Source: an uncultured Clostridia bacterium
Lineage (GTDB): Bacteria > Bacillota > Clostridia > TANB77 > CAG-508
DNA length: 53,878 nucleotides
Reading direction: 5' to 3'
Assembly: GCA_947627495.1 (NCBI GenBank)
Contig: CANQWH010000003.1
Coordinates: 1-53,878, forward strand
A program made the position numbers and the translations under genes. A model generated the notes under the pieces. That model searched no databases and was not told the DNA's origin. It saw only the letters and a list, made by a program, of their open reading frames with translations. Shown one piece after another: positions 13,924 to 14,081 of this stretch (the first letter of the stretch is position 1; the number at the start of each line of letters is the position of its first letter).

Positions 13924-13952
13924 TTGACAGTATAAATCAAATATGCTATAAA
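13924..13952 (+). promoter_or_regulatory. promoter for non-coding mini-array
   Basis: TTGACA-17-TATAAA; retains the operator half-site ATATGCT. Confidence 0.6.
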
Positions 13953-13962
13953 TAATATGTTA

Positions 13963-14043
13963 TTTTTAATATAAATAAATTAGAATTTAAATATAAATTT
14001 ATGTTAAGAAAATATTGTAATATAAATAAATTAGAATTAGTAA
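13963..14043 (+). CRISPR. CRISPR-like mini-array: 30-nt repeat, 21-nt spacer, degenerate repeat
   Basis: 21-bp core TAATATAAATAAATTAGAATT at 13967-13987 and 14018-14038; the first copy ends ATTTAAAT, a type I-B-like 8-nt handle. Confidence 0.55.
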
Positions 14044-14081
14044 AAAACTAATTGCAGAAATGTAACTAGTTTTCTTTTTTT
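14042..14081 (+). terminator. terminator after mini-array
   Basis: ACTAATTGCA-GAAA-TGTAACTAGT followed by a T run. Confidence 0.6.

Follow-up and report, generated by a model that had tools for sequence, protein, structure and literature searches.

A viral type I-B Cas5 gene followed by a regulator-derived CRISPR-like mini-array in a prophage of uncultured gut Clostridia: a possible two-part anti-CRISPR

The locus described here lies at the end of a prophage in the genome of an uncultured Clostridia bacterium (assembly GCA_947627495.1), where it is convergent with the lysis genes. The window, that is, the whole stretch of 53,878 nucleotides (nt) that was analysed, is an entire contig (CANQWH010000003.1) of a 1.35-Mb genome with 27.8% G+C. 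An operon of two genes, encoding an acidic protein of 75 amino acids (aa) and a viral Cas5 of type I-B, is followed by a mini-array in which two 30-nt repeats, psiR1 and psiR2, enclose a 21-nt spacer-like guide, psiS (Table 1). The repeats resemble the CRISPR repeats of the host genus, and the whole mini-array aligns to a crRNA-like (CRISPR RNA-like) regulator of a host I-B system. A preliminary description of this stretch, made from the letters alone, had recognised the succession of promoter, repeat, 21-nt spacer, repeat and hairpin with a GAAA loop. This structure was recovered, including the absence of any plus-strand open reading frame (ORF) of at least 40 aa within the mini-array interval; only the boundaries between repeats and spacer, as first drawn, were off by one base.

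The two repeats and the spacer occupy positions 13963-14043 of the window. A 21-nt core, TAATATAAATAAATTAGAATT, is present in exactly two copies in the window, at 13967-13987 and 14018-14038; when up to three mismatches were allowed, shuffled sequences gave a mean of 0.36 matches, and two matches were reached in 5 of 100 shuffles. Repeat finding returned a 24-nt pair with 96% identity, 51 nt apart. The repeat units themselves were delimited by alignment to the host CRISPR repeat, a comparison that the preliminary description had proposed and that revealed the similarity to I-B repeats of the host genus. One relative of the same genus, G011, carries a complete cas6-cas8b1-cas7-cas5-cas3-cas4-cas1-cas2 I-B operon with an adjoining array of 63 repeats of GTTGTAATATAAATAAAGTAGAATATAAAT, and close variants of this repeat were found in G017, G005, G028 and G020. 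Overall, a Cas5b match is present in 7 of 60 relatives, including 4 of the 17 in the genus. psiR1 and psiR2 match the G011 repeat at 26 and 23 of 30 positions, respectively, and the differences in psiR2 are clustered in its last six bases. These matches bear out the earlier observation that the repeats are type I-B-like, and the mini-array repeats are genuine type I-B repeats of the host genus and not a chance A+T-rich repeat. The putative 5′ handle of the phage element, AUUUAAAU, is formed by the final 8 nt of psiR1. It is one base apart from the host array handle, AUAUAAAU, at a site that is variable among the host repeats. The spacers differ more: 21 nt in the phage element versus 34-40 nt in the arrays of relatives, the six-repeat array of G020 included.

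CreR and CreA are host-encoded crRNA-like regulators of type I systems (bioRxiv 10.1101/2024.10.29.618823; 10.1101/2024.12.27.630466). In the current dataset, 25 I-B loci of the family were compared, 5 found via the genus relatives and 20 further ones, and all of them are ordered cas6-cas8b-cas7, followed by cas5 where the stretch extends that far. In at least 5 of the 25 loci, a number that is a lower bound because detection used a loose pattern, a psiR-psiS-psiR unit lies upstream of cas6: G017, G418 (L211), G345 (L222), G410 (L218) and G248 (L207). In all five loci the guide matches a site 38-47 nt upstream of psiS that is flanked by a CCA protospacer-adjacent motif (PAM). Scored at guide positions 1-5, 7-11 and 13-17, this self-target reaches 15, 15, 14, 12 and 14 matches out of 15, and in each locus (9-20 kb per locus, both strands) it is the sole CCA-flanked site with a score of at least 12/15. 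The units can therefore be regarded as CreR/CreA-like self-repressing crRNA-like RNA genes. Guide positions 6, 12 and 18 are the bases left unpaired by the type I crRNA in the Cascade structure. The G017 guide differs from its self-target precisely at these three positions, and matches of this kind are the signature of Cascade binding without cleavage.

The guides of the five regulators are 21-34 nt long, and the units of G418, G345 and G410 end 44-55 nt before the start of cas6. What follows the G017 regulator (L021 15520-15685, minus strand) is instead a DUF3800 gene (28.4 bits), located about 1 kb upstream of cas6, and this arrangement suggests that the DUF3800 gene is a CRISPR-guarded accessory gene. 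The I-B systems of this family thus appear to be commonly self-regulated via a CCA-flanked site, and one of the regulators probably guards the DUF3800 gene. The CCA motif agrees with the CCN PAM described for Listeria type I-B by Katz et al. (bioRxiv 10.1101/2023.06.24.545427). A sixth repeat pair, in G331, has a 36-nt spacer and no self-target. In G011 (L020), a lone repeat-like element, TTAATATAAATACATTAGAAC, was seen at about 16890-16925 on the minus strand, within the promoter of a 144-aa ORF of no known family and 674 nt upstream of cas6; it was accompanied by neither a second repeat nor a CCA target.

Alignment of the phage mini-array to the G017 regulator requires only one gap, of 13 nt, which falls within the guide. 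Identities are 26/30 for psiR1, 16/21 for psiS and 25/30 for psiR2, and the phage psiS corresponds, in register, to nt 1-21 of the 34-nt psiS of G017. Agreement of 16/21 with the best of six host psiS was reached by a fraction of only 0.0003 of 20,000 random genomic 21-mers. Moreover, several bases are common to the phage element and the G017 regulator and are not found in the array repeat, namely T at psiR1 positions 1 and 4; the psiR2 of both has A at position 1 and a TAA end, and the array repeat has neither. A degenerate psiR2 is also seen in the host regulators. These alignments indicate that the phage mini-array is a homologue of the CreR/CreA-like regulator of the host genus, with a guide reduced from 34 to 21 nt, and not a fragment of an array. 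Two readings had been offered for this RNA initially. The one as a CreA-like regulatory guide fits better; the one as a Racr-like RNA anti-CRISPR (Racr) does not agree with the definition of Racrs as solitary repeats, given the two repeats and the guide seen here. No CCA-flanked self-target is present upstream of the phage psiS. A candidate relic of such a target upstream of psiR1 (GCT PAM followed by ATAAATAATATGTTA, with a 1-nt indel) was rejected, being equalled by 148 of 5000 random 21-mers and by 899 of 5000 shuffles.

The promoter predicted for the mini-array, P3, is close to consensus and has the same design as two promoters further upstream, P1 and P2 (TTGACA-N14-TG-N-(-10)), and 10 nt separate its -10 box from psiR1. 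The putative terminator forms a hairpin with 13-nt arms (14044-14056 and 14061-14073) that is present in the minimum-energy fold; the fold z-score for the element is only -1.87, which is unremarkable overall. A search of Rfam found no family for the element. Two minus-strand ORFs of 40-41 aa, both mechanical calls, overlap the edges of the interval. At window positions 13998-13999 (guide positions 6-7), Logan contigs contain a second form (T>A, T>C) in 4 of 4 runs of one sample, at about half of the summed depth and 31-32 nt from the contig end. It may be a second guide allele or a stray contig.

The gene preceding the mini-array had been called cas5 from its translation alone, and profile searches agree. 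The protein, P0001, matches TIGR01895 with 121 bits (cut-off 96.7) over residues 1-218, and PF09704 with an E value of 1e-13. It retains 56 of the 59 columns that are invariant in 17 other Cas5b proteins. Its identity to five Cas5 proteins of the host family is 42-47%, versus 63-94% among those five. In a quick tree of 65 rows, P0001 and a metagenomic protein (P0002, 59% identical) form a separate clade with a stem of 0.88 and an SH-aLRT value of 99, a stem for which the tree tool warns that long branches may mislead. P0001 and P0002 also have residues in common that differ from the family consensus. The viral Cas5 is thus an intact, strongly diverged Cas5b of a separate clade. No other cas gene was found in the lysogen genome by profile searches, with Pfam Cas1, or by tblastn with the eight G011 Cas proteins, which returned the prophage cas5 only; as this genome is 91% complete, absence is unproven. 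Scripts based on k-mers found no CRISPR array in its 100 contigs. As Cascade genes are lacking in the lysogen, it would be in other hosts that the module acts. Array spacers from five relatives (62, 11, 27, 24 and 4 spacers) gave no good match to the prophage in 1426 blastn-short rows.

Table 1. Features of the cas5 and mini-array locus (window coordinates)
Feature	Position	Strand	Details
Promoter P1	12620..12648	+	TTGACA, 17 nt, TAAACT; TG before -10; scan 10/12 matches
58-aa ORF	12679..12855	+	weak MazE/AbrB-type and SymE matches below Pfam cut-offs (E 0.011-0.015); PHROG 14005, E 0.0036
Promoter P2	12889..12917	+	TTGACA, 17 nt, TATAAT; TG before -10; scan 12/12 matches
75-aa acidic protein, first gene of the cas5 operon	12970..13197	+	no known family
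Viral type I-B Cas5b, 229 aa (P0001)	13230..13919	+	orphan cas gene
Promoter P3 of the mini-array	13924..13952	+	TTGACA (13924-13929), 17 nt, TATAAA (13947-13952); TG at -15/-14 (13944-13945); read from sequence
psiR1	13963..13992	+	TTTTTAATATAAATAAATTAGAATTTAAAT
psiS, 21-nt spacer-like guide	13993..14013	+	ATAAATTTATGTTAAGAAAAT
psiR2	14014..14043	+	ATTGTAATATAAATAAATTAGAATTAGTAA; 3′ end degenerate
Putative intrinsic terminator	14044..14081	+	weak A+T-rich hairpin, GAAA loop, then TTTTCTTTTTTT

Two recent studies are relevant to the potential function of this locus. Liu et al. (bioRxiv 10.1101/2024.10.29.618823) describe Cracrs, phage-encoded RNAs copied from host CreR/CreA, whose guides are shorter than those of the host (mostly 17-21 versus 23-27 nt). 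Cas effectors re-programmed by Cracrs silence cas or toxin promoters, and the RNAs cooperate with a co-encoded anti-CRISPR (Acr) protein, AcrIF24. Type I-B is among the predicted Cracr classes, and 219 candidates are given in their Table S2. Katz et al. describe AcrIB3, a homologue of Cas5 in full length (38% identity) whose assembly into I-B Cascade leaves the complex defective. The present locus may combine both principles, as a prophage anti-CRISPR against the I-B systems of the host clade that consists of an AcrIB3-like viral Cas5 and a Cracr-like RNA. This reading is tentative, and we put its probability at roughly 0.45.

We infer that the mini-array is transcribed, that its RNA is processed by Cas6, loaded and bound at a promoter, and that it cooperates with the viral Cas5, along the following lines. 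In an I-B-positive cell, host Cas6 would cut the RNA to a product of about 51 nt, made of the 8-nt handle, the 21-nt guide and a 3′ part of the repeat. This RNA would load host Cas7, Cas8b and Cas6, with either host or phage Cas5, into a short, non-cleaving complex that would compete with immune crRNAs. The same complex could occupy a CCA-flanked promoter-proximal site normally under the control of the host regulator, so that the cas operon or a guarded gene (for example, DUF3800 in G017) would be kept shut off. Meanwhile, the viral Cas5 would poison normal Cascade in the fashion of AcrIB3. Such a mechanism would parallel the published synergy of a protein Acr with a Cracr (AcrIF24 with CracrIF). 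A bolder proposal, which we consider doubtful, is that of a single portable device with two parts, the viral Cas5 and the RNA. Here the phage Cas5 would preferentially seed host Cas7, Cas8b and Cas6 on the short phage guide, turning the immune effector into a phage-controlled transcriptional repressor that is withdrawn from immunity. If so, neither the protein Acr nor the RNA Acr would work without the other, and phages of gut Clostridia and of Fusobacterium would either have put the pair together independently or have exchanged it.

Similar parts were found in other phages. A complete 44.9-kb phage in IMG/VR (G425/L279) encodes a homologue of the acidic protein (59% identical, E 5e-27) and a Cas5 that is 45% identical, and this gene pair is likewise convergent with the endolysin gene. 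The Fusobacterium phage vB_FnuS_FNU4 [GenBank:OQ808964.1] has a Cas5-like gene of 355 aa (L010 1831-2898) whose product shows homology to P0001 in two parts, residues 1-67 and 207-328, which are set apart by an insertion of about 140 aa; the protein fails the Pfam Cas5 model (E 0.05). About 250 nt downstream, on the opposite strand, FNU4 carries a mini-array with a promoter (TTGAAT-16-TATAAT) and three repeats that end in TTAGAATTTAAAT/C, a 3′ end like that of the repeats in the window, with spacers 25 and 21 nt long. In the last of these repeats the sequence degenerates into ATTAGTAAAAAA, just as in psiR2 of the window, and Rfam has no family for this element either. The viral Cas5 thus recurs in two further phages, and a mini-array stands beside it in two of the three phages seen. 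Co-occurrence with orphan cas5, suggested at the outset as a check, holds for FNU4 and fails for G425. The FNU4 paper (PMC12632247) reports cas5 hidden Markov model hits, and its passages on Cas5 and CRISPR are silent on repeats; it also states that both host strains carry I-B systems and that one of them has 10 spacer matches to FNU4. FNU4, a cultured temperate phage, and its I-B-carrying F. nucleatum hosts could serve as a bench system.

Wider searches for the module gave little. Protein searches of IMG/VR were negative with P0001 alone and with an 18-sequence alignment, and an alignment of P0001 and P0002 retrieved one locus. The repeat core retrieved 86 IMG/VR stretches; among the loci fetched there was no second repeat nearby except for one 21-nt tandem (L089), and the eight contexts that were read resemble coding sequence. 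By DNA, 401 genomes of the family contained no second copy of the module, 12 candidate short matches having been rejected. A protein search of INPHARED gave FNU4 and two Listeria records (71% query coverage). The latter are left aside as unverified; in LM 4-11-1 the match is surrounded by ORFs of 562, 289 and 755 aa, sizes that would suit a cas operon.

Several observations weigh against an anti-CRISPR composed of both a viral Cas5 and a Cracr-like RNA. Most of them concern the guide, for which no target was found; the searches for a target or for a similar host guide returned matches that were unrelated or at noise level. There is none in the lysogen's own genome. The 25 family I-B loci (276 kb) contain 154 sites of at least 12/15, all of them without a CC PAM; the remaining 17 species of the genus gave 12 matches versus 7 in the control, none at I-B loci; and handle plus guide found no target in the 401 family genomes. 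Among 36 stretches retrieved from JGI metagenomes none lies near repeats or cas genes, and IMG/VR contains no exact protospacer and 16 periodic-N matches, none of them with a CCN PAM. The search of spacer and PAM against host cas promoters and other phages that had been proposed initially thus gave no target in the family I-B loci or in IMG/VR. I-B-positive strains of the phage's host species are absent from the collections searched, which limits these target tests. Against the G017 target the phage guide scores 11/15 by hand count, with a mismatch at seed position 5, and only 7 of its first 11 nt are identical to the G017 psiS, below the 9 PAM-proximal bases in common with a host CreR/CreA guide that Liu et al. 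use as their criterion. A short guide is also not exclusive to the phage, as that of the host G248 regulator is likewise 21 nt long. The missing target may have one of three explanations: the natural I-B-positive hosts are missing from the collections, the RNA is a target-free decoy, or it is idle.

Other points against the same interpretation come from the locus itself and from the related phages. The lysogen has no other cas gene, so that the RNA has no Cascade to load there. A consensus promoter scan did not list P3, because it requires T as the last base of the -10 box and P3 has A, and a terminator scan that needs three G-C pairs did not list the hairpin, which has fewer. The four runs that contain the stretch are all DNA, from one rabbit-gut sample of one study, with no RNA run among them. 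The whole genome of G425 has no repeat pair of this family, indicating that the Cas5 does not need the RNA. Finally, an 18-mer of the FNU4 repeat gave 42 single matches in species genomes, none in a record titled Fusobacterium, so that the repeat could not be matched to a Fusobacterium array.

The missing target would fit a pure decoy resembling a Racr, in which a target-free RNA soaks up host Cas6, Cas7 and Cas5 into short dead-end complexes; the viral Cas5 might seed these, and the guide would be what remains of the captured host regulator. The drift of the guide away from that of G017 (16/21 overall, 7/11 in the PAM-proximal part) is consistent with this view, and a strong dedicated promoter would suit a titrating RNA. 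Furthermore, Racrs, described by Camara-Wilpert et al. (Nature 2023, PMC10651486) as solitary repeat units, act via aberrant Cas subcomplexes. However, neither repeat has been lost from the phage element, its guide has a defined length, and two short guides are retained in FNU4. Liu et al. state that mere sequestration is resisted by host systems with CreR feedback, and this family has such feedback. We consider a pure decoy possible but on the unlikely side. The spacer could also be a weapon between phages that aims host Cascade at competitors, as the mini-arrays of archaeal viruses do. This is highly improbable, given a spacer of 21 nt where host arrays have 34-40 nt, the lack of an exact protospacer in IMG/VR and of a CCN PAM at any of the 16 periodic-N matches, and the homology of the element to a regulator and not to an array unit.

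Two further alternatives depend on how the viral Cas5 is interpreted. Its 56 of 59 retained invariant columns make it look competent and not broken, it has clade-specific residues in common with P0002, and cas5 and a mini-array are adjacent in two unrelated phages. These features could point to a dedicated phage ribonucleoprotein, in which the viral Cas5 is the specific partner of the phage handle and nucleates a hybrid phage-host mini-Cascade that the phage could programme to repress a promoter of the host or of its own. Such a specialised complex is nevertheless improbable, because G425 has the cas5 operon without a mini-array, the FNU4 array lies on the opposite strand, and the phage handle differs from the host array handle at only one base, a variable one. 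Conversely, the locus might be an inert relic, a fragment of a host I-B system (cas5 and regulator) picked up by the phage and now decaying; the lysogen without Cascade, the guide without a target, the absence of an RNA run among those holding the stretch and the degenerate 3′ end of psiR2 would all be expected of it. Yet cas5 is intact and constrained, and its clade is far from the Cas5 proteins of the host family, which speaks against a recent capture. The host regulators lie upstream of cas6 and not beside cas5, so the two parts were probably joined secondarily. In addition, the acidic operon partner is conserved in a complete phage, the host regulators have a degenerate psiR2 as well, and the mini-array has its own promoter of the P1/P2 design. 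A decaying fragment is accordingly quite improbable. A two-part anti-CRISPR of a viral Cas5 and a Cracr-like RNA, as set out above, is the reading that we favour.

Palindromes of 17 nt lie between the -35 and -10 boxes of the near-consensus promoters P1 (GCATATGTTACATATGC), which would drive the 58-aa ORF, and P2 (ACATATGTAACATATGT), which would drive the acidic ORF and cas5. The 58-aa ORF is a candidate small DNA-binding regulator with a possible role like that of anti-CRISPR-associated (Aca) proteins, and together with the palindromes it looks like an Aca-type autoregulator with its operators. Motifs resembling TGTAACAT were seen again at 14850-14950. The acidic protein has 158 homologues (57-97% identity), none with a Pfam domain, and its family is far more widespread than the viral Cas5 clade. 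Its model is helical with a pLDDT of 94.5, and no fold in the PDB matches it at E <= 0.001. The possibility that it is a homologue of the Cas8b C-terminal part, like AcrIB4, was rejected, as there is neither BLASTP similarity nor a PDB fold match.

Host genes start at 11874. The prophage is ordered as serine recombinase (52198-53753), repressor, replication, terminase, capsid, tail, and holin plus endolysin (15047-16194). The repressor-like gene (50619-51324, plus strand) has its helix-turn-helix part and its S24 peptidase part in separate ORFs, and the serine recombinase gene (plus strand) is similarly divided into a resolvase N-terminal part and a recombinase part. The prophage may therefore be defective, or the contig may contain frameshift errors. 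Beyond the mini-array, at 14183-14537 on the minus strand, a RelE/YafQ-like frame is divided into two ORFs of 41 aa (YafQ N-terminal) and 70 aa (RelE C-terminal), both weak matches; a frameshift in the gene could explain the division. Upstream of it, at 14550-14747, there is a 65-aa ORF. A toxin-antitoxin pair had been proposed for this place, but the weak, split match does not sustain it and is probably unrelated to the module. At 12214-12500 on the minus strand, between the host gene and the accessory locus of the prophage, a fragment interrupted by a stop resembles a peptidoglycan-binding domain when its translation is read by eye. It may be the relic of another phage's lysin.

The locus places a Cas-derived protein and a regulator-derived RNA side by side in uncultured, small-genome gut Clostridia, where neither has been described. 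The origin of the RNA is traceable to the self-targeting regulator of the host genus, shortened by 13 nt. If the parts cooperate, the locus would represent a natural case in which a phage brings along a subunit as well as a guide and with them re-programmes the type I effector of its host, and it would offer compact parts for type I-B control. The preliminary description had called such a module unusual. This is right insofar as the pairing seems to be new; viral Cas5 Acrs (AcrIB3) and viral crRNA-like RNAs (Cracr) are each already known. The papers searched do not describe a viral Cas5 that is accompanied by such an RNA, the preprint supplements (Table S2 and the list of 358 loci), which may contain related loci, lying outside the scope of this comparison. 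The term "mini-array" is absent from the text of Katz et al. as far as it was available, and Cas5 is absent from the review PMC11656645. Katz et al. give 358 orphan viral cas loci in IMG/VR, described as being without an associated array, and the Cracr pipeline of Liu et al. excluded matches adjoining cas genes. Both published screens would have missed a paired device of this kind: cas genes close to arrays were set aside in one, and arrays close to cas genes in the other.

Comparison with the known systems shows parallels on both sides of the pair. Like AcrIB3, with which it was compared by description only, the window Cas5b is full-length, lies on a prophage outside any CRISPR-Cas locus, belongs to a clade of its own and is found beside lysin genes, and Acr loci often lie downstream of phage lysin genes, as noted by Katz et al. 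The differences are the host, which is Listeria for AcrIB3 and gut Clostridia (a different phylum-level group) here, and the CRISPR-like RNA gene that follows Cas5 here. Like a Racr, the RNA is encoded by a phage, imitates the CRISPR repeat of the host and would engage Cas proteins, but it has two repeats and a guide and is derived from a regulator. It differs from the host CreR/CreA-like regulators, to which it is linked by the alignment to G017 and the common degenerate psiR2 end, in that it has no CCA self-target, carries a guide 13 nt shorter, ends in a putative terminator instead of running into a gene, and lies outside the cas locus.

The likeness to Cracrs is broader. The element is a psiR-psiS-psiR unit on a mobile element, a prophage, outside the CRISPR-Cas locus; it is homologous to a host CreR/CreA, forms a predicted transcription unit of its own, and stands beside a candidate protein Acr. 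Its guide has 21 nt versus 34 nt in G017, and viral I-F Cracrs have 17-21 nt. In contrast to Cracrs, no matching host target or guide was found for it (7/11 versus the criterion of 9), and it adjoins a cas gene, Cas5 being unmentioned in the main text of Liu et al. The FNU4 locus differs in its array on the opposite strand with three repeats and in the 355-aa Cas5-like protein with its insertion. It nevertheless shares several features with the locus in the window: a Cas5-like gene and, within about 250 nt, a mini-array with its own promoter, short spacers and a degenerate last repeat.

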